Shown here: positions 1 to 57,362 of the stretch, piece after piece
Layout of the letters: each line of letters starts with the position of its first letter
How positions within the stretch are numbered: the first letter of the stretch is position 1
NCBI GenBank assembly: GCA_000092065.1
Contig: CP000601.1
Source: Ostreococcus lucimarinus
Lineage: Eukaryota
Direction: 5' to 3' (one strand)
Length of the DNA: 64,000 bases
Notes under the pieces: model-generated
Told to the model about the DNA's origin: nothing
Database searches by the model: none
Seen by the model: the letters and a program-made list of their open reading frames with translations, nothing else
Translations under genes and position numbers: made by a program

Positions 1-698
1 CGGGGAGTTACTTGTACGACACGTCGATTCCGCTCAAGCTGCCGTCGTTGTCGGAGAGCGTGCGCGTACCGGCGTACGTGGCACACGATTACATGCAGCG
101 CACGATGCGATTGACGGCATTTTCACGGTCGTGGCCGAGCTTGTTTGTCGCCGCGAAGAACACGCGATCGTCCCTGCACGTCGATCAGTGGCAGGGGCAC
201 TTTTTCATGGCCGTGGTGCGCGGCACGAAGCGATGGACCGTCTTCTCGCGCGAATCGCTCGCGTTTTTACGGCCGAGCTGGTCGCGCGGCACGCTCGATC
301 CCGCGATGCCACCGTTGGAGGAACAAGAAGAGATGGGAATGTTACCGCTCCCGCGTGAATTCGGCGCGCGCCGATGGGACGTCGATCTTGGCCCGGGCGA
401 GGTGCTTTTCGTGCCGGGCGGCTCGCCGCACGCCGTTCGAAACCTCGATTGCACGGTGGCGTTCGCGGGAAACTTCGTCGACGACGTCAATCTGGACCGC
501 GTGTTGGAAGATTTAAAGCTCATGGCCGCCAAAGATCCCGCGTTGATGGAGAGCTACCGAGCGCTCGACGAGGTGGATTTCGACGACGAAGGCGCCGCGC
601 TCGCGGCGGGCGACGACGACGTCCACGCGGGCGCGTTCGACGCGAACGCGCGCGTCGTGCGAGTCGCCGATTATCTCGCGGGGGGGCGACTCGTGTGA
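1..698 (+). CDS. JmjC/cupin-domain protein, 5'-partial (runs off the window start)
   Basis: ORF frame is open back to nt 3. Translation has a JmjC-like core (HVDQWQGHFFMAVVRGTKRWTVF ... GEVLFVPGGSPHAVRNL), the double-stranded beta-helix fold of 2OG/Fe oxygenases. High GC3 codon usage matches neighbouring genes. Confidence 0.55.
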   Translation, partial: GSYLYDTSIPLKLPSLSESVRVPAYVAHDYMQRTMRLTAFSRSWPSLFVAAKNTRSSLHVDQWQGHFFMAVVRGTKRWTVFSRESLAFLRPSWSRGTLDPAMPPLEEQEEMGMLPLPREFGARRWDVDLGPGEVLFVPGGSPHAVRNLDCTVAFAGNFVDDVNLDRVLEDLKLMAAKDPALMESYRALDEVDFDDEGAALAAGDDDVHAGAFDANARVVRVADYLAGGRLV

Positions 699-808
699 TG
701 GGATGGATGTCTCGCGTCGCGTCTCGGAGTTCGGGACGAGGGGTTCGCGGCGTCGTGAAAAAGTGACAAAAAAATCAGGGAAGCCGAGCTCCCCCCATGG
801 GGGTGAAT

Positions 809-1036
809 CTCACAGCGATAAATTTTTTAAAGTACTATCCGTCACCCCGAAACGACGAAAGTCACAGTGTTGTCGTGTCGCTTTTCCATCACGGACAATC
901 GGGTGTGGGAAAAAGTAAGGTGTGATGTCGACACATCTCTTCCTGCGGGTTTCGATCCCGCGGCTTCCAGATCTCTATCGGAGCAGCCGTCATATTCGAC
1001 GGAGACTTTTTCCTAACAGTCTGACACTCTACCAGC
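809..1036. repeat. 228-bp dispersed/direct repeat, copy 1 (about 98.7% identical to 6744-6971)
   Basis: Aligned by eye to copy 2 with 3 mismatches and no indels. Contains a GCGGG-TTTCGAT-CCCGC hairpin and the 14-mer TGTCGACACATCTC. Confidence 0.9.
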
Positions 1037-1066
1037 AAAATTGTTTACAGAGATACCGCGACGAGA

Positions 1067-1443
1067 TTGAAGCAATACAAGGAACTCGATGGGCACCTGA
1101 TGAACGCCTCCGTGTGGGACGAGTATTTGACCCCAGAGATGCTCAGTCTGTATAATCCCGAAACAGACCAATTCGAGGAGCCCAAGCACTGGCTAAATGG
1201 GAAGCGTGTAGGAATTGCAATACTGGCGGATGATGTAAAATCGAGTCCGTTGCTGTCTAACAAAGCCTGGCGCAACCTGTGTATCAAATGCCGCCACCTT
1301 GGATCCTTCCCTGACAGTTCTCCACCAATAGGGTGCTCGATTTTCTGCGCGAGGTCAAGGACGCCGACGCGACGCTCCCAGACAAGTTGAAAGCCGAGGT
1401 ACCGACCATGCTTCAGAAAGGCGTGCGCGCGTATCTGGATTAA
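1067..1443 (+). CDS. hypothetical protein; reading frame changes near 1280-1320, possibly a very short 37-nt intron or a frameshift
   Basis: ORF 1067-1390 (first ATG near 1097) codes WDEYLTPEML...GKRVGIAILADDVKSSPLL. A second frame then continues with a protein-like C-terminus, VLDFLREVKDADATLPDKLKAEVPTMLQKGVRAYLD, to TAA 1441-1443. Removing gtatcaaatg...ccctgacag (GT..AG, 37 nt) joins the frames. No family recognised. Confidence 0.3.
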
Positions 1444-1666
1444 GCTTCACAAGTACCGTGGTGTGGGTAACATCTGGGACATCTTATCGAAATAATTCAT
1501 CGATGTTCGCCAGGAGATCGAGGAACAGGTGCCGTAAATTACGAAGAGCGTTTCGATTTACAATTTATATGATCCTCTAGCTTGAAAAATAGATCTCCGT
1601 CAGTGGCCGTGGGTGTGTTTGCCACAACTTGATTTGATAGTAATTGACATTTTTTTACCGCTCTCA

Positions 1667-3100
1667 TTAGTGCGCGTGTGCGTGTGAGTCTCCGCCACCG
1701 CCACCGCCTGTGCAATGCTTGTGGTTGAGGAGCACGAGACTGATGGCAACAACGCCGACGATGAAGGTGAGAATGCTCGTCGCGCGAAGACGAGGTGAAG
1801 TGGCGCTCACTGATACTCGGGGCATGCACTCTGCGGCGGCGATTTGCAGATAGACTCCAGCACCGAAGGCGAGCAGCAGTCCATGCCAGAAGTCGTTGTT
1901 ATTTCCCGATCCAACACTAATGAGGACGCCAAGAATGACACTCAAGCCGGAAACGAAGTTTAAAGTCAGCGTCGGCAACGGCGCGAGATCGCCCTGGAAG
2001 GGGTCTACGAGCACCAAGTAGTCAGCAAGCTCTTGAGCGATTTCGTGATAGACGGTCGCGGCGGTGATCGACCATCCCATGGTACTGTCGCAGTTCAGAA
2101 AGCCGAAGCCAATGAAAATACCATCCACTAGGTTGTGCATGAAATCTCCAAGAATGATACCACTTCGAACGCGATACTTGTGTGAGTTACAAGTACAAGT
2201 ATCACAGTCATCTTGAGCGCCTTTGACTGCAAGTTCCGCATCGGTTGTCTTCGCTGTATTTCCAAGAGTTGGGAACACGACAGAGATACCAAAGTCGATG
2301 AAGTAGGCCATGAGAAAGCCGAAGATAGAAGCGGAAGCCCACCATGCGGTCTGCTCTGCCTCATCCGAGCCAGCAGGTTTGATTAAATGCGTGGCTTCGT
2401 AGAACATCAGATAAAACGCAGCCGAAAGAAGTGCGCCGGCGGCAAACGAGTTAATTGTGCAACTCACAGTTTCAGGGTACGCTTTCTGCTTCTTAGCGAT
2501 ACTCGGGATGAGAAAGACCACACCAGAAAGTGTGACGATATTGACGATAATTGCCGCCCCAATGGCGTTGGCCCACGGTTTTGATTTCGATTCGCTCACG
2601 GTGGATGCTTCGGGAAGTGAAGCTTTTGGCACCACGTCATCTCCGTGGAGGTCCTTGAGATAGTGCGCGTCGCGCTCGAACTCGGTGGGAACGTGCTCAG
2701 CGAAGATTGAGATCGCGTCGATGCCAGTCGTATTAATCTTAAACGGCGTCGTGTGCCAGGTGTTGTCAAATTCAAGGTTGACACACCCACTATCAGGTGT
2801 CAAAACACTATCTCGTATCTTAGCCGTCGTACAAGCTCCCCCGATTGCGGTATCACCGCTATCCTCGCGGGCTTCGAGCTCGTCGTGTCCGGCGGCGATT
2901 TCGTCGTAGATGACCATTTTCATGGTATCGGCGGCGTACTTATCGGCCACCTTTTGCGCCTGCCACACGTATTCATTCTCTGGCGTCTCAAAGATTCCAG
3001 CCCATTCGAATGCGTGCGCGCCGGACGCGTGCGCGCCGCGCTGCGCGAGCGCGCTCGCGACGATCGCGATGCCACCACCGAGCGCGCTCGCGCAGCGCAT
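1667..3100 (-). CDS. ZIP-family (ZRT/IRT-like) metal transporter with large N-terminal ectodomain and signal peptide
   Basis: Translation carries the ZIP signature HNLVDGIFIGFGF and a second metal-binding helix HEIAQELADY, with multiple TM helices. The putative signal peptide MRCASALGGGIAIVASALA starts at the ATG near 3100; the ORF extends to 3196. Confidence 0.8.
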   Translation of the reverse strand: MRCASALGGGIAIVASALAQRGAHASGAHAFEWAGIFETPENEYVWQAQKVADKYAADTMKMVIYDEIAAGHDELEAREDSGDTAIGGACTTAKIRDSVLTPDSGCVNLEFDNTWHTTPFKINTTGIDAISIFAEHVPTEFERDAHYLKDLHGDDVVPKASLPEASTVSESKSKPWANAIGAAIIVNIVTLSGVVFLIPSIAKKQKAYPETVSCTINSFAAGALLSAAFYLMFYEATHLIKPAGSDEAEQTAWWASASIFGFLMAYFIDFGISVVFPTLGNTAKTTDAELAVKGAQDDCDTCTCNSHKYRVRSGIILGDFMHNLVDGIFIGFGFLNCDSTMGWSITAATVYHEIAQELADYLVLVDPFQGDLAPLPTLTLNFVSGLSVILGVLISVGSGNNNDFWHGLLLAFGAGVYLQIAAAECMPRVSVSATSPRLRATSILTFIVGVVAISLVLLNHKHCTGGGGGGDSHAHAH

Positions 3101-3325
3101 CGTTCGCCCTCGTCGTCGCTCGACCGTCCTCGCACCGCGTGCGCGTTCGCGCGGCGGCATCGTCGTCTTCGTGTTCTTCGTGTTTTCGTTCGTCATCGTT
3201 TCCGTCGTCGTCGTCGTCTTCGCCGGCGTCGGTAAGTGCGGCTGCGCACAAACTAAAGCGGCATACGAACCGAACCGGCGCGATGGAGGGCGGTCGTTTA
3301 TAAGTCACGACTCGCGAACGACAAA

Positions 3326-3590
3326 ATGTCGACATCCGCCGCAGTGTCGACACATCTCGGTGGTACTTGGATATGTCGAAATATGTCGACATGTGCGTCG
3401 AGACGTTTTTCGTATATAGATGCATCACGGGGTTCAATGCGTACACGCGCGTGGGTAAATATGTCGACATGCGTGTCGACATGTTTACGACGCGCGTCGC
3501 GACGCGATCCGTGATGGGCTTCGCGGGGCGTCGCGTACGACGATCCTCGACACGTGCACGACGCGAATCGTCGACACGTGCACGACGCGC
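3326..3590. promoter_or_regulatory. Palindrome-rich divergent intergenic region between the ZIP and COG0523 genes
   Basis: Five TGTCGACA palindromes (3327-3334, 3345-3352, 3384-3391, 3461-3468, 3474-3481) plus a half-site at 3373-3380. TATATA at 3413-3418. A 19-bp tandem duplicate TCGACACGTGCACGACGCG (3547-3565 and 3569-3587), each copy containing CACGTG. Confidence 0.4.
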
Positions 3591-3658
3591 GCGCATCGCC
3601 GCACTTCGCGACGCCTCTTCGGCTCGTTCGCGCGCGGAGACGTCGATCGCCGTACATC

Positions 3659-5299
3659 ATGTCCACACCCGCCGCAATCGCCAATCATAATCGATTGCCG
3701 GTGACAACGCTGTGCGGGTTCCTCGGCGCTGGGAAGACGACAACTCTGAAACGCGTGCTCGAAGCTAAGCGAGACGCGAACGGAAAGTTTCGGTGTGCCG
3801 TCGTCGTGAACGACGTCGCGGAGTTGAACATCGACAAAAAATTAATCGATGATTCCGCTTTGCTGCAGAGCGACGAGGTGGTTGCCATGCAGAACGGATG
3901 CGTGTGCTGTTCGTTGAGCGGAGACTTTGTAAAACAAATCGGGGACATGGCCAAGAGTGGCAATTTTGACTACATGATCGTAGAGGCATCAGGAGTGTCG
4001 GAACCGGCGGAAATTGCGAAACTCTTCGCAAATTGTGAGGACGATCACGATCATGAAGCTGCGCACGTTGATGAGCATGAACATTTGAGCACACTGGCGC
4101 GGCTGGATACGTGCGTGACGGTCATCGCTGCAGGTGACTTTCTCGACATGATTGATTCTTTCAGGGCGTCAGCTGTGAACAGGCAGTCTTACTCTCAATT
4201 GTTGGCTGAACAGATAGAGTACGCGAATGTCGTCGTATTGAACAAGGTCGACACTGTCGATGACGAACAACTCGCCGAGATTAAAGCGCAGATACAACTT
4301 CTCAATTCACGTGCTGATATTCTTGAAGCTGTGAACGGCGCGATCGACGTTACGCGAATCGTCAATACAAAACTTTACAAAGAGAATGACTTTGCTGGTT
4401 TCATAACATGGGAACAAGAGATAGAAGCAACATCTGTGAAGTCATGCTGCGCCGGCGCTAGGGACAAAGGTGAGTCTCCATGCTGTAAGCGAGCTCGCAT
4501 GAGAGAAACAGCCTTAAGCGAGGTCACGCTTGCACCAAGTTCTTCCCAAACACGTCACGATAGTCGGTTCGGTATTACGTCTTTCATTTACCGAGCCAGA
4601 AGACCTTTTCATCCCAAACGGTTTTTAGGCTCATTTGTCGAGCGCTTCTTCAGCTCCCTCGAGGCCGATGACCGTGATGAAGAAAAAGATGAAGAGACAC
4701 CAAGTGTAGACTGGAGTGCAGTGAAAGATATTCGAGCGCGACAAGAAGCGATGAAACTCAAGCGCCGTAAAAGGGAAGGTGAAATTGGTGTGCTGCTACG
4801 TTCGAAGGGTGTAACGTGGCTCAGTGATGCCCACGACTTGATAATTGTTTTCAGTCAGGCTGGTAATATTTACTCTCTCGAAGGATCAAGCCGATGGACC
4901 GCGCTGAATAAAAATGCTTGGGTCGGCTCACAGGGGATAAAGCAAGAACTTCGTAAAGACTGGGAGGGGCCTTATGGTGATCGCCGACAAGAACTGGTGT
5001 TCATTGGCAAGGATCTTAAATACGATGAAATTCAATCAACGTTGGACTCTTGCCTCTTGACCGACGAAGAATTCGAAATGGGTTCTGATGGCTGGAGAGC
5101 AGTCATGGGTGATGTCTTTCTAGACGAAGACGACGAAGACGAAGACGACGAAGTCGATGACGAAGACGACGAAGAAATCGACGAAGATTTGGTCGACGAC
5201 GAGGAGATCGAAGAGGAGATCAGGCCGCAACCCACTTCAAAGTCGAAGGCAAAACCAAAGGCAAAGTCGGCGCCCTCTCAAAACGACGGCTTAGTCTGA
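3659..5299 (+). CDS. COG0523 / CobW-type G3E GTPase metallochaperone (zinc-chaperone-like), with His-rich insert and poly-acidic tail
   Basis: P-loop LCGFLGAGKTT (in VTTLCGFLGAGKTTTLKRVL). CxCC metal motif GCVCCSL. His-rich stretch CEDDHDHEAAHVDEHEH. C-terminal DEDDEDEDDEVDDEDDEE tail. Start taken at MSTPAAIANHN (3659); the ORF itself is open from 3554. Confidence 0.85.
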   Translation: MSTPAAIANHNRLPVTTLCGFLGAGKTTTLKRVLEAKRDANGKFRCAVVVNDVAELNIDKKLIDDSALLQSDEVVAMQNGCVCCSLSGDFVKQIGDMAKSGNFDYMIVEASGVSEPAEIAKLFANCEDDHDHEAAHVDEHEHLSTLARLDTCVTVIAAGDFLDMIDSFRASAVNRQSYSQLLAEQIEYANVVVLNKVDTVDDEQLAEIKAQIQLLNSRADILEAVNGAIDVTRIVNTKLYKENDFAGFITWEQEIEATSVKSCCAGARDKGESPCCKRARMRETALSEVTLAPSSSQTRHDSRFGITSFIYRARRPFHPKRFLGSFVERFFSSLEADDRDEEKDEETPSVDWSAVKDIRARQEAMKLKRRKREGEIGVLLRSKGVTWLSDAHDLIIVFSQAGNIYSLEGSSRWTALNKNAWVGSQGIKQELRKDWEGPYGDRRQELVFIGKDLKYDEIQSTLDSCLLTDEEFEMGSDGWRAVMGDVFLDEDDEDEDDEVDDEDDEEIDEDLVDDEEIEEEIRPQPTSKSKAKPKAKSAPSQNDGLV

Positions 5300-5399
5300 T
5301 GTCTTTCTAGGTGACACTGAAGCGGAACAGGGTGGAGATGTGGACTCGGGCAACTCTTCCGACATGTAAGCTTGTCCTTTATAGTGAGCCCACACCGAT

Positions 5400-5696
5400 G
5401 TGAGCGCAAGTCATTTTTATGCACACAGTGACATCTTCATCGAATACCAGACGTGGTTGCCAGCGGCTGCGCGCGGTCAAGATAGCGCGACGAAGGTCGG
5501 CAATAAGCTCAAGGACTTCTTCAAGAAGGAAAAGGGCCACAGGGTCCCAATGGAAGAGGACCACCTGAGGCAAGGTAGAGACGAGAAGGGCGTCTATTGG
5601 GAAATTCACCGCGACGGGTGCTTCGAGTGGCTGAAGGACAATGGGTACACAGGGGAGACGGAGCTCGCGCCGGCGGTCGTCTGGTGCTCATACTAA
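5400..5696 (+). CDS. small hypothetical protein (98 aa)
   Basis: Open reading frame in the lower-GC island. The protein-like segment GVYWEIHRDGCFEWLKDNGYTGE has no recognisable family, so coding status is uncertain. Confidence 0.25.
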   Translation: MSASHFYAHSDIFIEYQTWLPAAARGQDSATKVGNKLKDFFKKEKGHRVPMEEDHLRQGRDEKGVYWEIHRDGCFEWLKDNGYTGETELAPAVVWCSY

Positions 5697-6130
5697 TTTT
5701 GTAATTCGTACATTTGCAATATGAAGACTCAACGAGACACCAAAAAGACCATGGTTTGGATCCTGACGAAATGACGAATGACGAACTGTTTTCATAAAGG
5801 TCCACACTGTTGCTTGTCATAGATCTAAAATAAAAATAAACATTAAAATATTTTAACATTTCGTCATTTTCATCATTGGTACACACAAAGTGTCACCGAA
5901 CGACGGGTTGACGAATTTGTGGACGACAAAACAAGTTCGTCATTTCGTCAGGTCTCGACGGATCACGAACGTCCAGGTGTGAAATCAGGCGGTTCGGTAT
6001 CTACATTCCGGACCTTGCAGCCCACGCAGCGATACGCGTACCTATGGTCTCTCGGATGTGACTGCAAACCGCAGGAGGAGGCACTTTTGGCAACAATATT
6101 TTCTTAGGGATAGATAGGTAACCAGGACAA

Positions 6131-6628
6131 ATGCCGTCGGGATGCGTGTACGAAATGTTTAGCGATAATGCGAAATGTAACAAAACGTACATCGGATCGA
6201 CGACGGGTTCGCTCAGAGCGCGCCTTGCCTCGCATAAATACGCACGACATCCAATCTTCACGTTTGGCGACGCGGACGTGAGAGTTCTCGAAAAGGACAT
6301 TCCAGCTGGAGAGCTCCATCAACGTAAAGGTGCCTACATGAGAGAGAAGCGTGACGGCTTATTCAACTCCCGAGCTGCTGGACGCAGCCAGAAACACGCG
6401 TGCCGCGAGAACGTGGACGAGAGTCCAGCCTACAGCAGAGCTCAATATACGCCGAAGCGGGACGGCGGCGATGGTAACTACAGACAACTCAATTATTACA
6501 AGCAGCACGCAAAAGGAATACTGCGCAAGACGTGCCTCAAGAATGCCCGAGCGCGCGGCACGCTGCCTTCGAAGCGCAGTCTCGACAAGTATCAATTTAC
6601 GGTAGATGAGTTACGCGGCTTGGCTTGA
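6131..6628 (+). CDS. GIY-YIG nuclease-domain protein (homing-endonuclease-like)
   Basis: N-terminus GCVYEMF-x9-KTYIGSTTGSLRARLASH fits the GIY-x(10-11)-YIG core with the following Arg and His/Glu. Lies in the lower-GC island, immediately upstream of repeat copy 2. Confidence 0.55.
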   Translation: MPSGCVYEMFSDNAKCNKTYIGSTTGSLRARLASHKYARHPIFTFGDADVRVLEKDIPAGELHQRKGAYMREKRDGLFNSRAAGRSQKHACRENVDESPAYSRAQYTPKRDGGDGNYRQLNYYKQHAKGILRKTCLKNARARGTLPSKRSLDKYQFTVDELRGLA

Positions 6629-6743
6629 CCACTTCACTCACACGATTGGTTCTGGAGAAATCTTACATGCGGTACATCAACGTCGATGTGCGGTTTTATC
6701 ATGTTGGGGTGCCCCAACTCAAAAAAAAAGTTTATTTTTATTA

Positions 6744-6971
6744 CTCATAGCGATAAATTTTTTAAAGTACTATCCGTCACCCCGAAACGACGAAAGTCAC
6801 AGTGTTGTCGTGTCGCTTTTCCATCACGGACAATCGGGTATGGGAAAAAGTAAGGTTTGATGTCGACACATCTCTTCCTGCGGGTTTCGATCCCGCGGCT
6901 TCCAGATCTCTATCGGAGCAGCCGTCATATTCGACGGAGACTTTTTCCTAACAGTCTGACACTCTACCAGC
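6744..6971. repeat. 228-bp direct repeat, copy 2
   Basis: Near-identical to 809-1036. Preceded by an A9 run and an AT-rich stretch (6700-6743). Confidence 0.9.
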
Positions 6972-7232
6972 TGAGTTAAGGAAGACTGTTTATGCATACG
7001 CACAACATCGCGGACATTCGACTGCCCATGCTCTTTATTTCGAGGCTTAACTCGGCGAGGTGGACGAATAATTGGTATTATACGTCGCTCGATGGTGGGT
7101 TTGCGACAGATCTTCGCGGCTTGACGCCGTCGATCCGCGATCGCGAATGTTACAGGTTGAGGGCTCGGGCGAGGACGTCGGTGGTTTTCGCGCGTTCGTT
7201 CGTTCGTCGTCACTCCGCGGTCGAATCCATCG

Positions 7233-10200
7233 GTGGATACGATGGATTCGACGCGGTGCGCGACGTGCCGGGCCGTCGTGCGCGGCGGCGCGGCGACGTG
7301 CGCGGAATGCGGGGCGCCGCAGGGCTACGATTCGGATTCGGACGCAACGATTCGCGTCGACGATGACGATGATGACGATGATTCTTCGCACTACGCCCGG
7401 GACGCCCGGGACTCGAGCGCTTCAGACGCCGACTCGAGCACTTCCGCCTCGTCCACGACTCGGCGTCGGCGGGAAGTCGAGTCGCGCGAGCGGGAGATGG
7501 AGGAATCGCCCGAGGCGTTGAAATTGTTGTACATGCTGAGTTTGTACACCGACGCGTCTCAGAAACAGTCGAAGTCGAAGTCTGCGGTTTCCAACAACAA
7601 CAACAACAAACGTTCTCCCTGGATTCGCGAGCTGCCGCTCCTGGTGCTCGTGTACGAGGGCATCGTGCGAAACGCGGTGTTCGATTACGATTACGCGCCA
7701 AAATCAGAAAAGATATTTGGAGCGTGTCCGAGGTATTTGAACGTCTCGGAAGAGGGACGAGACGATTTAGACGATTTGCGTGAGCTTGGTTTCATCACGG
7801 CGCTCAAGGTGACGAGCGAGACGTACGATCACTCGACGTTGTTGAAGATTTCCAAGAAGGGGAGCGAATTCTTGCAGAGGATGACGGCCTCGGGACGGTT
7901 CACGAGCGCGATGCGCCAGTCGGTAGATTCGTTGGTGCACGAAGCTGGTCACCTCCTCGAGGTGCGGTACGACCGCGAGTCCTCGGATTTTTTCCTCACC
8001 GTCCCCTCGATCGGGGTCCGCATCCGCTCCACCATCACGGACGTCGAAGACGTGCCGTACGTCTCGTCTCCGTACATCCCTCCGCACATGCTGAGCTCCG
8101 ATGCGTTCACACCGAACGCGTTGAACGGGCACAAAAAGGCAAAACGCGTGCTCGGCGGCGCCGTTCAAAGTAGTCGCGATATTCGCGACCCGCGCCTGAG
8201 TGAAAGTATCTTGCTCGACTCGGTGAAAATCATCGTCACCGAATACGTGCCGATGGGATCGAACGAAATGGTTTCTTTCTGTAGAAAACTCGGCACGGGA
8301 GACCGCGTCGCGGGCGGTATGTTCACCGCGGAAGCGAGCGCGACGCAGGACGAATTCAACATGGTGGTCGGGATCAACGCCGACAATAAAACCGAGCTAA
8401 AAGTCCTCGACGTCGACGAAACGCGATTCGTAAACGTCGAGGCAGACTTGCTCGCCACCGGGGCGCCCAAGAGTAACTTGGTGCAGCAGCAAATCGAGGT
8501 TTTCGGCATCAACTTTCGGGAAAACGGCGCCATCACTTACGGCATCGTCGTCAACGGCATCGCCGATCGAATTCGAAACGATATCAGCGTCGATTTACTC
8601 GCGCGCTTACTTTCCGACGTCCACGAAGACACGAGCTCGCTGGTGGGAAATTTATTTTCCGAGCGTCAGCGCTCCATGTTGAACATCACATACAAGGGCG
8701 AGCCGGACAATCGCGACAAGTTTACGTGCATCATCGCCGAGCGCGCGACGCCAAAACTGAAAGCCGCGGCGTACATGGATGGTGAAGATAACGAAAACGA
8801 GCTCAAGCAAGTCATCGGCGCGACGTTTTACGCGTACGACCTGAACGAACAAGAAGTCATCGTCTTTGGTTCACGCGGTGTCGTCGTCTTTGGTCCGCGC
8901 ACCGAACGTCATCACAAGCTTCTCGCGACATATTCAGCGTTCCAAGCTCGCTCGTTGTTCATCAAAAGTGTCTTCAGCAGTTGTTTCGCGCTGAACGACG
9001 AGTTGAAGAAGACGCGAGCGTTGATTGAAACCTATCAGATCGATCCGACGAACGTAACGCGCATTCGTTCGCGCCTCGCCGATCACACGACGACGGTGAC
9101 GATCTTGAGCGCCACTCAGCAGTTCGTGCTCGAGTCGCTCGAAAACGTCGACACGTCTCGTGAAAAGTTGAGCGCGGATATGAGCGACGGCGCGTCGCAA
9201 GTGTTGTACGACTTGTTTCAGTTGGAACCGTCGTGGAAACGCTTGCAAAGACGCGCCGTTGACTTGGAAAAAGTCATCGCGGCGTGCGTCAACGATCTCG
9301 AGTCTCTGCGAGAAATGAACGCCGTCATCGGCTCACGAAGAAAGCTCCGCATCAACGAGGCGATAGAAGGGACGACGAAAAACTTAGAGGATGCTTTCCG
9401 AGCGCAGGCGCGCAACAGCACCACGCTCGAGGTGACGCAAGTGATTTTGTCGGGGACGCTCGCGTTTGACATTCTCGATCGATTCACGGGGCAATACCTT
9501 TCGTTCACCGAGATTCGATGGGCCGTCGAAGCGGTGCAGCCGTACATAGTGAATGTTCCCGCGGTTTGGTTCATCTTGAACATGCTCGCGTGGTCGGCGT
9601 TGGGCGGTGGAATTGTTTATTTGATGCGCTACTTGGCCTACATGCATTGCAGCGTGGAGACGAAAAAGCTCACACTCAATAAACCCATTCATTTGTCGCG
9701 ATGGCGGCGATTCATCGCGACGCGCAACGTGGAGTCGACGGCTTTTAAGGAGGAGAACAACCGTCGCGTGGTGAAATACGGCTGGACCGAGCCCATCGAC
9801 GTCAAAAAGTGGAAAGGAACGCCCCCGAAGATTAACGTCACCATCGACGAGCGATACGGTTTCATCTTGCAAGCGATGATCATCATCAATAAGCGCACGT
9901 GTACGCTCTCCGGCGATGCGGTGTGGCGTCAATTTTGGAGCGATGTTTTCGTCGCTCGCAACGTCCACGATCAAAGTCGAGAGCTGTTTGACACCGACAC
10001 CGGCGACCGTTTGCAAACGGCCGAATATTCGTCAGAAGAAGAAGACGAGACTCGCCGCGACGTCACGGCCAAGATCATCGGCATCGACAACCGAAAGTCC
10101 ACGTTAAAGTGGCGCGATGGCAGGCAAATCCTCGCGCAAGACGACACCGACGACGACATCGATTCGGACGAGGAGGCGATCGCGAAGACGGGCGATTTGA

Positions 10201-10292
10201 CGTTTGAAGGCTTCGTCGCGTCCAGGTCGTTGAAACTCGCTCGAGAGGAAGAGAAGGCTAAAAAGAAACGAGCGGCAAGGATGGAAAAGTGA
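7233..10292 (+). CDS. large hypothetical protein (1019 aa): N-terminal zinc-ribbon, acidic tract, C-terminal TM segment
   Basis: Long ORF with host-like GC3 bias. CATCRAVVRGGAATCAECG (C-x2-C-x10-C-x2-C) at the N-terminus. D8 run. Hydrophobic helix AVWFILNMLAWSALGGGIVYLMRYLAY near residue 780. (AAC)6 repeat coding an Asn run. No family recognised. Confidence 0.55.
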   Translation: MDTMDSTRCATCRAVVRGGAATCAECGAPQGYDSDSDATIRVDDDDDDDDSSHYARDARDSSASDADSSTSASSTTRRRREVESREREMEESPEALKLLYMLSLYTDASQKQSKSKSAVSNNNNNKRSPWIRELPLLVLVYEGIVRNAVFDYDYAPKSEKIFGACPRYLNVSEEGRDDLDDLRELGFITALKVTSETYDHSTLLKISKKGSEFLQRMTASGRFTSAMRQSVDSLVHEAGHLLEVRYDRESSDFFLTVPSIGVRIRSTITDVEDVPYVSSPYIPPHMLSSDAFTPNALNGHKKAKRVLGGAVQSSRDIRDPRLSESILLDSVKIIVTEYVPMGSNEMVSFCRKLGTGDRVAGGMFTAEASATQDEFNMVVGINADNKTELKVLDVDETRFVNVEADLLATGAPKSNLVQQQIEVFGINFRENGAITYGIVVNGIADRIRNDISVDLLARLLSDVHEDTSSLVGNLFSERQRSMLNITYKGEPDNRDKFTCIIAERATPKLKAAAYMDGEDNENELKQVIGATFYAYDLNEQEVIVFGSRGVVVFGPRTERHHKLLATYSAFQARSLFIKSVFSSCFALNDELKKTRALIETYQIDPTNVTRIRSRLADHTTTVTILSATQQFVLESLENVDTSREKLSADMSDGASQVLYDLFQLEPSWKRLQRRAVDLEKVIAACVNDLESLREMNAVIGSRRKLRINEAIEGTTKNLEDAFRAQARNSTTLEVTQVILSGTLAFDILDRFTGQYLSFTEIRWAVEAVQPYIVNVPAVWFILNMLAWSALGGGIVYLMRYLAYMHCSVETKKLTLNKPIHLSRWRRFIATRNVESTAFKEENNRRVVKYGWTEPIDVKKWKGTPPKINVTIDERYGFILQAMIIINKRTCTLSGDAVWRQFWSDVFVARNVHDQSRELFDTDTGDRLQTAEYSSEEEDETRRDVTAKIIGIDNRKSTLKWRDGRQILAQDDTDDDIDSDEEAIAKTGDLTFEGFVASRSLKLAREEEKAKKKRAARMEK

Positions 10293-49650: not shown

Positions 49651-52600
49651 GCGCGTGCCGTTCAGGGACGAATACGAGCGACACAGGGCGTCGCGACCGG
49701 ACGAACGCGCGCCGCGAGGGGCGAGTTGGCGCATCCATCGAGTGCGAGGATGGCGCTTCGACCTGCGCGCGCTGTACGAGGAGGTGAAAAGACGCGGTGG
49801 CGCGGACGCGATCGATGGAAATCAAGGCTGGCGCGAGGTCGCGGAGGCGATCGGGGCGCACGGACGCGGATGCGCGGCGGGACACGCGGCGAGAGCGCTG
49901 CACGGGGCGTGGCTGGAGGCGTTCGCGCGCGACGCCAAGCGAAGAGAAGACGCGGTGAAGAGCGCGCAGTTCGACGCGGTGAAGGGAGAGATCGAACAAG
50001 ATGACGCGCTGGCGATCGATGCGCTGTGTGGGCTCGAATTTGGGGCGTCGGGCGCGCCCGAACGGCGAGTCAAGGTGGAAAATGTGCGTAATTCGTGCCA
50101 TATCTTCTTCGCGCGGGACCGGGATGACGGCGAATCGCACGCGTTCGCGGCGCGTGCGACGCGCGCGCGCGATGATGGGCGTCGCGATGACGTGCGACTG
50201 ACTTTTACGGCGCGTGTTTTCGCGACGCAGGGCCTCGATCTCGTCGCCTCGCAGCTCGCGGACGCGCCCGAGGGCGACGCCGACTGCGACGTGTGCGGCG
50301 CGAGCGGGAACGAAGACGCGATGATCCTGTGCGATGGGTGCGATCGAGGGTGCGTATACGACAATGCCACGCGAGAACGCGCGCGTGAAAATTATCTCGA
50401 TCGTTCGGACGCGCGTTCGGGGAGAGAGAGCGCTCGCGCGGCGCGCGAGGGCGCGGCGAACGCGCGCGTGGGCGACGGTTAGACGTGGGGTTTAGAGGCG
50501 CGCGGGGGAGAAGGAGCCGCGAAGGAGCGACGAGACTGACGAATGATGCGCGCGTAGGTCACATATGTACTGCTTAACGCCGAAGATGACTGAAGTGCCG
50601 AGTGGAGAGTGGTTTTGTGGACGATGCGAAGAGATTGACGCGGAGGTGGAGCGATTGAGCGCGGATGAAGGGACGCAGTTTACGCTCGGCGATTTCAACG
50701 AGGCGTGCATAGAATTTGATACGGCGTTCTTTGGCGAGGACGCCAAGCGAACTGGGATCGATATGCAGGTGATTGAGGAGTGTTTCTGGCGAATGGTTGA
50801 AGATGCGAGCTCGGTGGATGATGTTTGCGAGGTCAAATGCGGCACGGCGATTGACACGACAAAGTACGGAAGCGGGTTCCCGAGACACGGCGAAGCGCTT
50901 CAGGTAAAGATTGACGGCGTGAGCCCGGAATCTATCAAGCGCTGGTCAGAGTCGAAATGGAATCTCAACAACGTCGCGCGCGCGAGTGGGGAAAAGTCGT
51001 CGCTACTGGGCGCGTTGAAGGATGACGTGGCGGGCGTGACGACGCCATTCTTAGAAGTCGGAAGCACGTTTAGTTCCACGACTTGGCGTCGAGAAGAGCA
51101 TAACATGTACAGTATCACTTACAATCACTGGGGTGCCGCGAAACTGTGGTACTGCGTGCCGGCGAGTGCAGCGGACAAGTTGGAAGAATGCTTCCAGAAG
51201 GTGATGCCCGACGTCTACGAGGCGCACGTCAACGATTTGGGAAGCGTCTTTACGATGCTCTCGCCGAGCTTCTTGATGAGCGCGGGAGTGCCCGTGCACA
51301 CGTTGGAGCAATTCCCAGGAGAATACGTGGTGACGTATCCCGGGGCGTACTACGCGTCGTTCAACTGTGGATTGAACTGCACGGAGAGCGTCAACTTTGT
51401 GCCCGCTGACTGGCTCCCAGAGGGCTCGGCGAGCGTGGAGAGAAACCGATCGTACGCCAAGCGTTCATTGTTTAGTCACGACGAGTTGGTTTGCAGAGTA
51501 GCAAACAATCCTAGTTCGAGCATAGCGCCGCACTTGTGGCCCGAGATTGCGCGCTTGTACGCTGAAGAGGCAAACGGTCGCGCCGAGCTTTTCGCGTCTG
51601 GCGTGACGCGCAGCGCGCAAATGACGTCAGCAGACGACGACGACGACGACGATGGCTGCGAAAAGCCTCGTAAAGTACGATCTAGGTTTGACGATGCATC
51701 GAACTCTGGATCCGATGAGTGCGTTGTTTGTCGACACATTTTGTACTCGTCTGGCGTCGGGTGCTCGTGCGACGAGACGCGCAAGGCGTGCTTGCGACAC
51801 GTCAACGACTTGTGCAAATGTGCGATGTCGAAGAAGACGATGTTTTACAGAGAAACAGTGGCTGATTTAGAAAGTCTGGTGAAGAAGACGGAGAAGGCGC
51901 TTTCTCAGAAGGAACTAGCCAGCTTAAAATCCAAGCACAGCGACTTGGACTCAGTCACAGTGAACAAGAATCTCGTCAAGAAGGCTCAGGCTTGGGTGAA
52001 ACGAGTGGGCGAAGAGCTCGTCAAACCACCTTTGCCGCCGCTGGACAAGATGAGAAATTTACTCGCTGCGGGTGAAGAGTTTATTTGGGGTGGTGCTGAT
52101 ATGAAGGCGGCTCGAGAAGCGTACACTCGCGTGACGAACGCCGTCGCGTGGCAGACGAGTCTTGTGGCGCTGAAGCAAAGGCTTGGATCCAGTGCTGGTG
52201 CCGAGGCCGCGCACGATGACGCTGGTGAAGCGCGATTGAGATTGAACAGACTAAAAGAGCTCCTTGACAACCCACCGGTACCGATGCCTAAGGCTGATAC
52301 TCAACCTTTCCGCGATTTGCTCGCGGCGGGCTTGAAATTGGAGGAACGCATCAAGGCGGCTCTCGCCGAGGTACCGAATCCATCTCCTCGCGCTTGTACG
52401 ACGCTTCAAACTGAAGCGAATAAGTTTGGTGTGGAAGTCCCTTCATATAAAAAGCTGAAGGACGTCATCGTTAGAGCAGGCGCGTGGTCCACGAAGGTGC
52501 GCGGCGCGCTTCCAGGACGACGACAACTCCCGCCGCGCGAGGAACTAGCGAATGCTCGAGAGATCGAGGCGTTATACGAAGAGGCGCATGGATTACCCGT

Positions 52601-55600
52601 TCAGCAGAGCGAACTCTTGACTTTGCGCAAATCTTTAGAAGAGTTGAATTTTTGGCGCGCAAAGTCTGAGTCGCTGTTCGTCGCCAAGGTTGACGTGGAA
52701 GAAGCCGAGGCGCTTCTCAAGGAGGGCATGGCGTTGTCAACAAAACTCGACGAGGTCGACAGACTAGCCGATCAAATCAAAGCTGTCAAAGTGTGGGCCG
52801 ATCATGCTCGAGCGAGTGATTATCCGGGAGCAAGAGTGACGGATTTGCACATGCTTCTCGTCGAGGGTGAAAAGTTTAGCGTGCGAGTGGACGAAGTCGA
52901 GTGGTTGCGAAACCGTATCGTCGTCCGGGAGCTGGCAGAGAAATTGAAGGACATGGTTTCATCGAAGAAATATCCGCTCGCCGAAGTCGAAGCGGCCGTG
53001 CGGGCGGGTAACGAGTTCCTCGACTCCGAAGATAAAGAGGTTGCCCCAGATGAAGAAGCGCTGCTGGCGCAGTGCGAGAGCCACATCAACGCGGCGAAGA
53101 AGTGGAACGAGCGCGCGGCGGTGATGCTCAAATCTCTCGATAGTAAGGACCGACCGTCACTCGAAGACGCCGCGTCGCTCATCCGCGAAGGAAGCTCGAT
53201 TCCAATCTTTCTGAATGGATTCGACGTGCTTTCAGAAGCGGTCAATGTAGCCAAGTCTTGGTTGGATCGTGCACAACCTTGTTTGAAGGGAAAGCAGCTC
53301 ACTCGTCGCGGTGTGTCAAATCCGATTCCGCCGCTTTCCGAGGCGCAAGAGCTCATGAAAGAGTCTTCGAACTTGAAATTGTTTGTCAAGGAAGTTGAAG
53401 CTTTGGAAGAACGCGTCGAAGCCGCAGAAGAGTGGGACGTGGACGCGAAGGACGCCATCGAGCGCTGGCGAGAAGACGGCGCCGAGGTGACGTTGACCGA
53501 GCTTGAACTTTCGCACGAAGACTTTGGATTAGAATTACCAGCCATGGAGACAGTTCGCATTCGTTTAAAGTCGCTCAAGTGGGAAGAACGCGTCGCTAAG
53601 ATCATTGCACCCAAGGCGAAGCTCGTCGAGGACACCGTTTTGGACGAGCTCAGGGAAGAAATCGACGTGCTTCAAGACTTGAAAGAGGATCTTGTCGCTG
53701 AAATCATGAAACGGTACACGATTGTGGACGAATGGCGCAAGAAAGCGGATCGTTTGCTCGATCCTCCTCTCCTTGAAGACGGTCGATTGGCTCCGAGTGC
53801 ATCACCGGAGGAAATAGACGCCCTCATCGCCGAAGGCAAGGCACTTCCCGCTGACGTCTCGAAGGTAGAAGACCTCGAGGCGTCGTTGGCGGATCACGCA
53901 CAGTGGGTCGACACCGTTCGTAAGTGCTTGAACAGTGTCGCTGAAGGTCGATCTCGCCCTTCGATTGACGAATTATACGATCTTCTAGCGGAGGTGGAAG
54001 ATTTGACCTTCAAGTGCTCAGAGAGACAAGCGCTCACAAATGCGTGCAACGCCGCCACGGCGTGGACGGAGAGGCTCAACGCGTTGCTCTGGGCAAACGA
54101 TCAGGGTGAAGTCAAACAAGAAAAAACGCTTATCGAAATGTTGAGCAATGTTCTTGATTCCATCAAAGCTGGTGTGGAAGACATCACCGGGACTGGCGAA
54201 CCGCCGGAGACGGAGGAGGGTTAGTTCTGCCTTTGTCGACAAGCTGGAGGAATTCAAATGGTTGGATGTGATGATTGCGGTGACTGGTATCACTTAAAAT
54301 GTATCAATGTGACGCCTACTATGGCAAAGACGATGCACAATTACATCTGTCCGCCATGCATCGCGAAGAGTGGCAAGGCGAGCGCACTCTCGTTGGATAC
54401 GTATCGCTCGGTGCATCGCACCAATCGCCCAAACGTCATGCTTTTGCGAGAACTCCTCGGTGAAGCGCAGCGATTTCCTGGAGAAGTGCCAGAAGAAGCC
54501 GTGTTGAATCAAGTCATCAATACTCACGACGCGTGGCGATTGGAAGTACGAAAGACTTTGCATAGAAAGAGTATGAAGGAAGCACACGACAACGCCATCA
54601 GTCAAGCTTCGAAGATTGCCCAAGAAGCAGCGATGAGAGAATCTGAGGAACGCACACGACGAATCGCCGAAGCGTCGCTCGCGGCGACTGCAGAGAACCC
54701 CAATCCTCCAGCTTCTCTCACGCCATTACAGCAAGTCATGCTGATGGGTCAAGCTGTCACGTTCGCCGCAACGCAGCGCACGCACGCGTTGAACATTTCG
54801 CCGTGTTCGCAGGAGATTTCAGATGTCGTCACAAAGCAGCTCGGGCAACTTCAACAGCTCGCCATGCAACTCGCGATGTGCCAAGCTCAAATTCACATGG
54901 CTCCAGTTCGGTCTAGGCCCCACATCCTCCACGTCTTGATGATGCAGCAACAGCATCTAAAGATGACAAACGAGCACGAGGAAGAGCTGGCAAATGTTGG
55001 CGCTAGCAACTGGCTCATGGAAGCGACTCTGCAACTATCTGGAATGTCTGGCATGATGCCGCCGCCGACGGCGCAAGACACCGGCAAAGAACCTTCAACA
55101 TCCACGGGTCATGGTAGTCCAAGCGATATGTCTGCTCAGTTGAAGACGAACGAACCGATGATGGTTCCGCAGCAGTTCATGTTGCAACCGGCCATGCCAT
55201 CGCTTGTCGGCGACGCGTCTGGAATGCCCAAGCAAGAGATGGATTACACGTATGACATTCCTCGAAAAGATAATGTCGATCCAGCGCTGCAAGTGTACGC
55301 GGGCATGAAGGGTGCTCTGGCGATGGAGCTGGAACCTGTTGAGGAGACGCTCGCGTTGATGCGCGAAGTGTGCGGTCCGGCGTGGAGAGAACAAGCCACG
55401 CGGCTCATGACTGGTGCGCCGTTCCCGAGGTTGATCAAGCTTCACGAGCTCAAGGAATCTGCCATGGCTGCTGGTCTTTGCCCTGGTGCCGGCATTGATC
55501 CTTTGGCCGATCGCGCGCACGCGTTGGAGGTTGCTGGACAAATCTGGCTCGAACGCGCCGCCGCCGTCGTGCAAGACAAAACGATTCCTATCGAGGCGGC

Positions 55601-56087
55601 GCAGTTGCTGCTTCAAGAGGGTCGATCTTTGCCTTTATACTTGAAGGAGGAGCTCGAGGAGTTGGGAGAGCGATGCGAACTGTATTGCGTTTGCCGAAGC
55701 GCGTACGACGCTCTCAGGCCGATGATTTGCTGCGATCGATGCGATGGTTGGTTTCATTACGAGTGCATCGGCATGCAGTCGCCGGCGCCGGGCGAGGAAG
55801 ACGAAAACGCCGAAAACGTCAAGTTTGCCTGCCCAGAGTGCTGCGCGGCGCAAGGTATTCCGTACGTTCCGTTCCGTCCAGCGCCGAAGGACACGGACAA
55901 AGCGCCGGAGCGAGCCGCGCCTCCGCCGGCTGAAGAAGCTCCGGAGCCGCCAAAGACGGAAGAAGAAGCGAAGCCGCCCGCTAAACCAGAACCGGAAGTC
56001 GCGGACAACAAGAAGAAACGAAAAACGGTGGAGCCGACTCCGCCTGCTAATAAAAGTACCTCTAGTCGCAGCAGAAGACGAAAGTAG
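49651..56087 (+). CDS. KDM5/JARID1-like JmjC lysine demethylase (ARID-PHD-JmjC-C5HC2-PLU1-PHD-PHD); segments 49651..50349, 50558..54221 and 54225..56087 with one intron and one unresolved in-frame TAG
   Basis: ARID (FDLRALYEEVKRRGG...AARALHGAWLEAF). PHD1 is split by an intron (CDVCGASGNEDAMILCDGCDRG | SHMYCLTPKMTEVPSGEWFCGRC). JmjC core (HTTWRREEHNMYSITYNHWGAAKLWY...EQFPGEYVVTYPGAYYASFNCGLNCTESVNF). C5HC2 zinc finger (CVVCRHILYSSGVGCSCDE). Two C-terminal PHD fingers. TAG 54222-54224 lies in frame between the PLU1 region and PHD2. Confidence 0.7.
50350..50557 (+). other. spliceosomal intron (208 nt) splitting the first PHD finger of the KDM5-like gene
   Basis: GTGCGT donor right after ...CDGCDRG. 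ACTGACG at 50535-50541. GCGCGTAG acceptor. Splicing reconstitutes a perfect C4HC3 PHD finger. Confidence 0.8.
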
Positions 56088-56135
56088 TTCTCTAGATTTA
56101 CAACATTTGACACAATAAACAACAACTTCAATAAT

Positions 56136-57362
56136 TCAACCGTCCAGGTGCTCGTCCCATCCCAGGTCTCGTTTCGGCTTGCGCCTACCGACCAACTTGG
56201 CCGCGTCCAGTTCGGTCAACAATTCAATTTCGTCGAGTGTTTCCTCGCTCACATCGATGTCGTCCGTCACCGCGAGCTTTTGACCCTTTCTATGACGCTC
56301 GACGAGTTCTTCGAGATATCCTTGCTTTGCGTAGTTCGGTATCAACCTAGACATGTACACGCCGCGCAAAATACGTTTTTCTTCCTCAGTCAAATCGCCG
56401 TGAAACCCTCGGCGGTTGATCCGGTCCGTCACGGCGTGCGACATCACGAGCGCGGCGGCGACGGAAATGTTCAAAGACTCGGTGAAGCCAAACATCGGAA
56501 TGTACACGGCGCCATCCCGCAGCGCTCGCGCCTCGTCCGAAACCCCCTCGCGCTCGTTCCCAAACACCACCGCCGTGGGCACGGTCCAATCGTAATGCGA
56601 CAGCGGCTGCGCGCCGTCAAACTCAGTCGTAAGAACGCGGTATCCTTTCGCCTTCGCGACTCTGAGCGCGCGTTCCGACGTCTCAAACTGCTCCACGTGT
56701 TGCCACTTCAGCGCCCCTCCCGACGTCCTCCCGCTCGCCTTGAACGACAGCCCCTTCGAGCTCACGATCGACGCGCACCCGATCCCCAGCGCCTCCGTCG
56801 TCCGACACACCGCCAAGATATTGCCGACGTCGTAGACGCCCTCTAGAATCGGCAGCAACGAAAAACTTCTATGCTCCAAAACGTTTTCCAGCCGCATGCG
56901 TCGCTCTTCCCCGACCATCGCCGTCGCGAGCGCCACCATCGTCTCCGTCTCGCACGTCGCCCTCGCGAACGCGAATCCATCGCCGTACGGGAATCTTTCC
57001 CTCTCGTCCTCGTTCGCGCGCGTCCCCAAATCTTCCCGCCGCGCCCGCACCAGCCCGTGAAACTCCAGCGCGTCCGGCGCCCACGCGCGCTGCCTTCGGT
57101 GCGCCTTCGCGCTCTTCGTCGCCACCGCGCCCGTGCGCGCCACCGCGCGCGTCGGTCGCGGCGTCGTGCGCTTCACGACGACGTCGTGCGGGCCGGCGTG
57201 CGCGCGCGACCCCGGTTCCGACACCGATTCCGATTCCGCCGCGTCGTCGTCGCGCGCGCGTCGCGTCGCCGGTCGAGCGACGCGCGCGGCGCGCTCGCGA
57301 GCGTCGCGTCGATTCGCGTCGATTCGCGATCCCGCGCCCGCGATCGCGCGCGTCGACGCCAT
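56136..57362 (-). CDS. SpoU/TrmH-family RNA 2'-O-methyltransferase
   Basis: SpoU blocks VLEHRSFSLLPILEGVYDVGNILAVCRTTEALGI, AVVFGNEREGVSDEA and YIPMFGFTESLNISVAAALVMSH. The N-terminal Arg-rich part of the ORF is likely non-coding or a presequence. Confidence 0.65.
   Translation of the reverse strand: MASTRAIAGAGSRIDANRRDARERAARVARPATRRARDDDAAESESVSEPGSRAHAGPHDVVVKRTTPRPTRAVARTGAVATKSAKAHRRQRAWAPDALEFHGLVRARREDLGTRANEDERERFPYGDGFAFARATCETETMVALATAMVGEERRMRLENVLEHRSFSLLPILEGVYDVGNILAVCRTTEALGIGCASIVSSKGLSFKASGRTSGGALKWQHVEQFETSERALRVAKAKGYRVLTTEFDGAQPLSHYDWTVPTAVVFGNEREGVSDEARALRDGAVYIPMFGFTESLNISVAAALVMSHAVTDRINRRGFHGDLTEEEKRILRGVYMSRLIPNYAKQGYLEELVERHRKGQKLAVTDDIDVSEETLDEIELLTELDAAKLVGRRKPKRDLGWDEHLDG

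Follow-up and report, generated by a model that had tools for sequence, protein, structure and literature searches.

The stretch of DNA analysed here, 64,000 nucleotides of contig CP000601.1 and called "the window" throughout, comes from the picoalga Ostreococcus lucimarinus, with exact protein matches at NCBI to strain CCE9901. Two near-identical 228-bp direct repeats in it enclose about 5.7 kb of low-GC DNA (1037-6743), an island with genes for a ZIP-family metal transporter, a COG0523/CobW-type GTPase and a GIY-YIG-domain protein. We find it probable that this island is a recent insertion in the O. lucimarinus lineage, a low-GC mosaic that entered at a tRNA-Asn gene through break repair or template switching, with duplication of 228 bp of the target. 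The repair or template-switch mechanism, taken by itself, is read from the end product and has in our judgment an even chance of being correct. In our reading the island is neither an autonomous mobile element nor a fresh viral or bacterial transfer; its parts are a fragment of a P-loop gene, a ZIP module, a replaceable promoter segment and a block of ~3.2 kb with the CobW gene, a helicase remnant and the GIY-YIG gene.

The tRNA-Asn target and its counterpart in related lineages

The question of whether the island was inserted could be addressed at the orthologous locus of relatives, a comparison suggested in the first-pass annotation, which had been made from the sequence alone. Homologues of the protein encoded in the right flank (window 7242-10292) led to contigs of two related lineages among 36 fetched loci (numbered with an L): a sister lineage (L017-L019), in which this protein is 91-92% identical and the synonymous divergence (dS) of flank genes is 0.04-0.13, and a more distant lineage (L020), with 66% identity and a dS of 1.7. 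In both, a JmjC gene is followed after 575-805 bp by an MJ1566/67-like gene, synteny is kept on both sides, and ZIP, CobW and GIY-YIG genes are absent from the spacer. The spacer of L017 has a single complete tRNA-Asn gene; L017 9621-11500 aligns to window 6881-8717, and 8723-9427 to window 1-699. Because the orthologous spacer lacks the island in two related lineages, we conclude that 1037-6743 was inserted in the O. lucimarinus lineage. The orthologous spacer of L020 (9150-10020) has an apparent degenerate 5' half of a tRNA-Asn on the opposite strand (GTCTCCGATAGCTCAGTTGGTAGAGCGTTCGACTG) and, after it, a GTAAGT...CAG insert; this half goes undetected by Rfam at the gathering threshold.

Near-identical direct repeats of 228 bp had been reported at the two ends of the island, and both copies are indeed 228 nucleotides (nt) long, lying 5,935 bp apart with three mismatches (A-coordinates 813, 905 and 922); a 49-nt core has exactly two occurrences in the window, where chance would give none. 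The content of the repeat had been overlooked: it is most of a tRNA-Asn gene together with the 128 nt downstream of it.

809-1036: repeat copy A, with tRNA nt 15-114 (1036..937, minus strand) followed by the 128 nt downstream of the tRNA (936..809); tRNA nt 1-14 are absent
6744-6971: repeat copy B, with the 128 nt of tRNA-downstream sequence and tRNA nt 15-114
6872-6985, minus strand: intact tRNA-Asn(GUU) gene with a 42-nt intron after the anticodon (Rfam RF00005)

Rfam places a single tRNA in the whole window, tRNA-Asn(GUU) at 6985..6872 on the minus strand (49 bits against a gathering score of 29; E 1.9e-8; full model 1-71). ARAGORN reports no tRNA in the window, missing this intron-bearing tRNA-Asn, and copy A gives no Rfam tRNA match even at E<=10. 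The first 14 nt of the tRNA (6972-6985) are unique and, joined to copy B, make up a complete gene, and copy A is a 5'-truncated tRNA; the direct repeats at both island ends hold the 3' part of the tRNA, and an intact tRNA is present at one end only. All differences between the two copies are private to one or other haplotype of copy A, copy B being invariant save for one change in L004, and the copies were therefore identical when formed. Away from this locus, no further copy of the 228-bp repeat was found in the window or among the 36 fetched loci. The repeats are a duplication of the insertion target and not transposon ends, with copy B as the complete tRNA gene and copy A as a truncated relic; where no clean target-site duplication had been recognized, we read the 228-bp repeat itself as that duplication.

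Two further accounts of the repeats, which together we find barely credible, are that the island was present in the ancestor and disappeared from the relatives when its flanking repeats recombined, or that these repeats are unrelated copies of a dispersed tRNA-derived short interspersed element (SINE) or miniature inverted-repeat transposable element (MITE). Direct repeats of 228 bp could mediate such a pop-out, and tRNA-derived SINEs are found in many eukaryotes. Ancestral loss, however, is opposed by two successive outgroups without the island, by a sister site that is no simple one-repeat product of a pop-out (it has no counterpart of 699-910), and by the CobW dS of 0.019 against a second locus described below, which is younger than the species split. 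A dispersed SINE or MITE is hard to square with the restriction of the repeat to this locus within the window and the 36 fetched loci, and with copy B being a genuine tRNA gene in the orthologous place; a T-run resembling a terminator for RNA polymerase III (Pol III) lies ~25 nt past the tRNA, so that the 128-nt tail would be unlikely to form part of a Pol III SINE transcript.

Composition and sources of the inserted DNA

The DNA between the repeats had been described as about 50% GC, and sliding 300-nt windows agree (0.40-0.55, with a minimum of 0.397 at 5701-6000), save for a GC-richer patch of 0.55-0.68 at 2850-3750 that spans the starts of the ZIP and CobW genes and the spacer between them. 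The values of ~68% GC and near 90% GC at third codon positions (GC3) given for the surrounding genes were not borne out; open frames elsewhere in the window have a GC of 0.55-0.71 and a GC3 of mostly 0.70-0.82. The GC3 of the island genes is 0.62 for ZIP, 0.54 for CobW and 0.59 for GIY-YIG. Low GC3 is not specific to the island: an ordinary host gene for a KDM5-type histone demethylase (JmjC, zf-C5HC2, PLU-1, PHD) is equally low, its three consecutive frames at 50547-56843, probably exons of one gene, having a GC3 of 0.59-0.63. The genes and gene remnants of the island are as follows.

1037-1351, plus strand: P-loop gene fragment ("ORF107", an open reading frame (ORF) at 1067-1390 with a TTG start), corresponding to about residues 106-212 of a P-loop protein of 308 amino acids (aa), with 64-66% aa identity by tblastx/tblastn
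1667-3100, minus strand: ZIP-family metal transporter, 477 aa, the frame being open to 3196; identical to ABO99284.1 and ABP01263.1 (CCE9901)
3375-3626: hypervariable ZIP-CobW intergenic segment, here with allele P1 (252 bp), recognized by comparison of population contigs
3659-5299, plus strand: COG0523/CobW-type GTPase, 546 aa, ZigA-like; Pfam PF02492 (6e-41) and PF07683 (1.5e-18)
5425-5696, plus strand: C-terminal remnant of a primase-helicase (orphan ORF 5400-5696, 98 aa, GTG start), the last 90 residues of a Prim-Pol + DUF5906 gene
6131-6628, plus strand: GIY-YIG-domain protein, 165 aa, of a multi-copy element-associated family; identical to ABO99431.1 and ABP01176.1

The early assignment of a ZIP, a COG0523 and a GIY-YIG protein to the island is upheld by Pfam (PF02535 for the first, PF02492 and PF07683 for the second), the GIY-YIG match being weak and its motif conserved. 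Both of the frames that had been taken for orphans are pseudogene fragments of genes from a selfish element. Homology to ORF107 begins at 1033-1046, where repeat A has its inner edge, and stops near 1351; the 308-aa protein from which it derives (Walker A GKT, Walker B IIDD) is encoded directly downstream of a primase-helicase in the related element copy L013, where it has a weak terminase-like PHROG match (E 0.0099) and the ORF a sub-threshold match to a TNP-like RNase H (E 0.0009). For the second fragment, homology to the primase-helicase has a sharp start at 5424/5425 in five of five independent element copies, and since it begins so abruptly in every one of them the ORF can be identified as the end of this gene. 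The full-length proteins, of 726-733 aa, contain PF09250 and PF19263 and match PDB primase chains 6k9c/6k9e at 1e-12 and a PHROG DNA primase at 1e-31; the element family has a Prim-Pol/helicase replication module, of which the window retains the last 90 codons only.

The GIY-YIG protein belongs to a family that is multi-copy in marine metagenomes, and its gene is found just downstream of the 726-733-aa primase-helicase in L011, L012, L021 and L029-31, and upstream of it in L014, a more distant copy. The window protein matches Pfam at E 0.009, below the gathering score, and PF01541 is found on homologues with 49-63% identity. The motif GxVYE...YIGST...R...H...N is conserved, and in an alignment of 13 members Y20, G22, S23, R31, H35 and N79 are invariant and Y7 nearly so; the ratio of nonsynonymous to synonymous divergence (dN/dS) between copies is 0.2-0.3. 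On these sequence features the 165-aa protein can be placed in the GIY-YIG superfamily (PF01541) as a predicted nuclease.

Beyond the GIY-YIG gene, homology to the element (L021) breaks off at 6746, just inside repeat B, with a 3-bp microhomology (CTC); L021 itself continues past its GIY-YIG gene with unrelated sequence that is not tRNA. Given a left edge at about residue 106 of the 308-aa gene and a right edge at 6746, both inner junctions cut element sequence and not element termini. The element remains in the window amount to ~1.6 kb of fragments.

A more extensive view of the element is offered by L013 (1-16912, the end of a 112-kb contig, ENA ERZ28548062), an element-rich, low-GC region with two primase-helicase copies (80% and ~95% identical to that of L011), a degraded ZIP pseudogene, bZIP-like ORFs and unannotated ORFs of 522, 404, 499 and 374 aa, of which those of 404 and 499 aa are paralogues with 29% identity. 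These four might be structural genes of the element; hidden Markov model searches for a capsid gave no match among them. Apart from the sub-threshold TNP-like match of the 308-aa ORF, Pfam, PHROGs and NCBIfam gave no integrase, rve or transposase domain for the ORFs of the island or of L011-L014, L021 and L029, and none of the fetched element copies yielded an identifiable capsid, protease, integrase or terminal repeat. We could not find close relatives of the GIY-YIG, primase-helicase, ZIP or CobW proteins in 2.9 million IMG/VR contigs, nor a specific description in the literature of an Ostreococcus or Micromonas primase-helicase/GIY-YIG element.

The CobW gene leads to the source of the right-hand part of the island. 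Its product has the CxCC motif, as "GCVCC", and its best NCBIfam match is ZigA, at 288 bits and below the 600-bit equivalog cutoff; zinc is its predicted metal. The 90%-identity cluster of this protein holds forms of 507 and 510 aa, and through the 510-aa variant we found a second locus, "locus D" (L029-L036); its contigs are 584-611 kb long, and the GC around it is 0.46-0.58 over 13-21 kb. Nearby lie a 950-aa ORF, a bHLH gene, genes of sialyltransferase-like and methyltransferase type and more copies of the element. Over window 3627-5123 locus D has 98.8% nt identity and over 5297-6222 it has 96%, and the junction between the CobW-downstream sequence and the helicase remnant is identical; in strains with the P2 allele of the promoter segment the homology starts 116 bp before the CobW ATG. 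Seemingly element-free alleles of locus D keep a 23-bp helicase footprint, which marks them as secondary deletions. From this sequence comparison we conclude that the block of ~3.2 kb from ~116 bp upstream of CobW to 6746 was copied from a locus D-like donor. Between the island and locus D, CobW has a dS of 0.019 and a dN/dS of 0.14, on a scale where dS is 0.003 within the species and 0.04-0.13 against the sister lineage; being lower than the latter, the CobW value indicates that the copying post-dates the split from the sister, in agreement with the empty site.

The island copy of CobW differs from locus D by an in-frame insertion of 174 bp (5124-5297), bounded by a 14-bp direct duplication (TGATGTCTTTCTAG) and absent from locus D, which swaps the C-terminal "GDTEAE..SSDM" for a 55-residue acidic and lysine-rich tail. 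The coding sequence of the old tail persists just past the new stop codon.

That the whole island came directly from a virus (a prasinovirus or polinton-like virus) or a bacterium is an account we consider very improbable. A GC3 lower than in most neighbouring genes and the virus-like element genes (Prim-Pol with an S3H-type helicase, GIY-YIG and a possible packaging ATPase) would be expected of it, and outside its own 90%-identity cluster the nearest CobW is that of a bacterial lipopolysaccharide (LPS) gene cluster. This top representative (525 aa, 52% identity; L025/L026 8001-9578) lies among genes for LpxK, a lipid A acyltransferase, heptosyltransferases and a pyrroloquinoline quinone (PQQ) enzyme. 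An identity of 52% says nothing, however, about recent transfer. Against 50%-identity representatives nothing above 58% was seen among the matches listed, and a metagenome scan with CobW, dominated by its acidic-repeat peptide pattern, returned three distant loci at 30-50% identity. The CobW/helicase-remnant/GIY-YIG block, moreover, has its immediate source in a cellular locus of 96-99% identity with the same breakpoint, and no close relative was found in the IMG/VR contigs. The first-pass annotation had proposed a mobile, viral-derived or horizontally acquired island. Insertion, a composition distinct from that of most neighbours and the presence of selfish-element DNA with a virus-like gene set all survive from that proposal; there is, on the other side, no intact mobile element or provirus, and direct viral or bacterial transfer finds no support as the immediate source of CobW.

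The ZIP protein has a match to PF02535 at 1.2e-21 (residues 212-487) and is named "ZIP family transporter: zinc ion" at NCBI, the substrate being predicted. The one other trace of ZIP is the pseudogene of L013, which is frameshifted, lies beside a primase-helicase copy and has 66-73% nt identity over window 1664-3364. The ZIP and GIY-YIG proteins each have two identical copies in the CCE9901 reference. In this strain, chromosome 21 is described as having arisen by fusion of duplicated parts of chromosomes 9 and 13 (PMC2367439); the doubled proteins fit this segmental duplication and are not evidence of transposition.

The segment between ZIP and CobW is replaceable. Allele P1, that of the window, has repeated ATGTCGACAT/GTGTCGACAC palindromes in a unit of ~78 bp, and allele P2 is an unrelated AT-rich sequence of 313-325 bp (L002 111-423, L004 5233-5557, L007 4096-4420). 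Homology to locus D is continued by the right 121 bp of the P2 alignment window, the last bases of which run into the CobW start, and not by P1. Two of the strains with P2 (L004 and L007) share a 6-bp in-frame indel in ZIP at window 2188-2193 (475 versus 477 aa), and an overlapping 6-bp gap is found in L010.

Population variants and the proposed mode of insertion

Ten metagenome contigs carry the island at 98.9-99.96% identity to the window, and variation among them bears on how it was formed and on what has happened to it since. The largest variant is the following.

5758-6830: 1073-bp indel segment, present in the window and in L004 and deleted in six population contigs

The deletion takes the GIY-YIG gene and the first 87 nt of repeat B, leaves a repeat of 141 bp and has a GG microhomology; it is the derived state, because independent element copies are contiguous across 5757/5758. 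Homing by the GIY-YIG nuclease was considered as a cause of this indel and rejected: the boundary lies inside contiguous element sequence, 87 nt of repeat B are lost, and the GG microhomology marks a deletion.

Copy A of the repeat exists in more than one form. That of the window has three private changes, and that of L003, L004 and L007 has four others together with an intron-like insert of 87 bp at window position 946 (L003 1242-1328, L004 2724-2810, L007 1587-1673), in the T-arm of the tRNA-Asn sequence. The insert has perfect spliceosomal signals on the tRNA strand (GTAAGT...ACTGAC...CAG) and occurs, 98% identical and at the same position, in the only tRNA copy of the sister lineage (L017-L019 9534-9621); neither the window nor any copy B has it, and it belongs to no repeat family in the sequences compared. 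An intron-like insertion in a Pol III gene is odd. An unrelated intron-like insert of 100 bp (GTAAGT...AACTGACC...CGCAG) is found in L004 (8901-9000) at window 6969/6970, in the D-loop of the copy B tRNA, 2 bp from the outer boundary of the repeat, which implies that the same spot was broken at least twice. Window 690-929 is ~4% divergent from L003, L004 and L007 (10 differences in 240 bp), against ~0.15% for the island interior; the divergence at this left junction suggests an old or recombined haplotype.

One contig, L006 (JGI 3300048107, Ga0494404_002059; 1-6988), has a different order: 3379-5757, then one repeat copy (100% B-type), then 1037-3374. Its layout reads as a GC-rich light-harvesting complex (LHC) gene, a P1-like promoter with an extra unit, CobW, the helicase remnant, the repeat, ORF107, ZIP, P2 and the CobW start. 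Possible readings of L006 are a tandem or circular island, a second locus and a chimeric assembly; haplotyping by single-nucleotide polymorphisms fits neither a chimera nor a real form decisively, and the pattern of a circle junction had no match in IMG/VR.

This contig is central to the main alternative, a Campbell-type one, in which a small circular, non-autonomous derivative of the element, carrying ZIP, CobW and a captured 228-bp tRNA segment, entered the chromosomal tRNA-Asn gene by homologous or site-specific recombination; direct repeats would result, and the intact tRNA would be rebuilt at one end, as happens with tRNA-targeted islands of bacteria. The geometry is that of attL and attR at a tRNA gene; joining the island ends restores the element order seen in L013 (primase-helicase, (GIY-YIG), 308-aa gene); L006 carries the predicted circle or tandem junction; the ancestral 87-bp insert is found in some A copies and never in B; and the empty site of the sister is without the distal part of the repeat. 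We nevertheless regard this integration as unlikely. Neither the island nor the related element pieces yielded an integrase or recombinase, the sequence of L021 past GIY-YIG is not tRNA-like and the 228 bp are therefore no standard part of the element, and the capture of exactly the 228 bp of this locus would be an extra, earlier step. L006, for its part, mixes P1 and P2 with a foreign LHC flank and can be a chimera across repeats of 114-250 bp, and the circle junction is absent from IMG/VR. Decidedly improbable, in our estimate, is the more specific version in which the island is an integrated non-autonomous circle of 4.9-5.9 kb from a virus-like element, with its own genes swapped for ZIP and COG0523, that moves through the 141-228-bp tRNA-Asn homology and of which L006 is the circle or tandem junction; were it true, the island would be a eukaryotic nuclear analogue of bacterial tRNA-targeted metal-acquisition islands. 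Recombinase-mediated integration of an autonomous element is disfavoured because no recombinase was found, the repeat is long and runs past the tRNA, the 228 bp are absent from other element copies, the junctions are internal to genes, and the cargo is a patchwork with a donor of intragenomic type.

The insertion by break repair or template switching that we favour would have begun with a break or stalled fork at the tRNA-Asn gene. Yeast tRNA genes are known pause sites of replication forks. Repair would then have copied or ligated several non-contiguous low-GC segments, either by end joining or by template switching of the type of microhomology-mediated break-induced replication (MMBIR) or fork stalling and template switching (FoSTeS). 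The 228-bp duplication could have arisen through re-entry 228 bp behind the point of departure, or through fill-in of a 228-nt staggered break. No recombinase would be involved, and the element fragments would be passengers and not the engine. The 174-bp insertion in CobW, with its 14-bp duplication, is a smaller event in the same style within the island. Going by the families of their products, the outcome would be a ZIP importer and a zinc-metallochaperone GTPase now head to head at a shared, fast-changing promoter, and the gain by the lineage of an extra, modified COG0523 copy with a new acidic tail.

Several observations weigh against this account of the insertion. That the 87-bp insert is shared by some A copies and the tRNA of the sister, and never by copy B, is what a tRNA segment supplied by the element predicts; the repair model needs a later recombination with a haplotype bearing the insert. 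In L006 the island is circularly permuted around one repeat copy. The spacer of the sister has an unrelated 70 bp in place of window 699-910, and the presence of the distal 87-100 nt of the repeat at the target before insertion is thus not demonstrated. A single junction (CTC) has been examined at nucleotide resolution, and the template-switch step is deduced. No donor was found for the ZIP module or for the left part of P2, and the GIY-YIG gene of the present-day locus D is truncated, which makes this locus a relative of the donor and not the exact donor; locus D is not proven to share a genome with the window.

Significance and comparison with known systems

The locus is a dated, population-polymorphic case of DNA moving from a low-GC, element-rich compartment to an ordinary chromosome. 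Predicted zinc-homeostasis genes were carried along, and the resulting head-to-head ZIP/COG0523 pair, with a fast-evolving promoter and a new chaperone tail, would be a concrete route for adaptation to metal niches in a globally abundant picoalga. Further turnover is visible in the population contigs, with the 1.07-kb deletion, two intron-like tRNA insertions and the promoter replacement, and these structural variants provide a convenient natural marker set for Ostreococcus population genomics. Low GC, a nuclease gene and flanking repeats can together mimic a mobile or viral island, and calls of this kind need an empty-site test and a donor search. The relevance of the locus is mainly to Mamiellales genome evolution and as a caution on island calls made from composition only.

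Several features recall the bacterial islands that target tRNA genes: the tRNA site, repeats holding the 3' part of the tRNA, one intact and one truncated tRNA, a GC lower than that of the neighbours, metal-uptake cargo, and absence from related lineages. Unlike those islands, this one lies in a eukaryotic nuclear genome with no integrase found, its 228-bp repeat reaches 128 nt past the tRNA, its junctions run through element genes, and it has its immediate donor elsewhere in the same or a near-identical genome. The element that served as a source resembles polinton-like viruses and virophage-like elements in encoding a Prim-Pol + DUF5906 protein of 726-733 aa, GIY-YIG proteins and P-loop ATPase-like proteins, and differs from polinton-like viruses in that no capsid, protease, integrase or terminal repeat could be identified in the fetched copies and that IMG/VR has no close relatives.

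The setting of locus D, at least 20 kb of ~50% GC and rich in elements, is like that of the low-GC outlier regions of Mamiellales (chromosome 2 and the small outlier chromosome), and its sialyltransferase-like and methyltransferase genes resemble published descriptions of such regions; chromosome 2 of Ostreococcus is rich in transposable elements and non-coding DNA (PMC2367439). The island itself, in contrast to the outlier regions, stands in an ordinary syntenic gene neighbourhood. With templated insertions (the filler DNA of non-homologous and microhomology-mediated end joining, and the products of FoSTeS/MMBIR) it shares a mosaic of several segments, a 3-bp microhomology at the one resolvable junction, a duplicated target and a second small insertion nearby with a 14-bp flanking duplication; it departs from them in that a donor was found for one segment only and in that 228 bp is long for simple fill-in of a staggered break. 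Among known systems, we would place the locus with duplicative or templated insertions, as a new case in which a low-GC genome compartment was the source.

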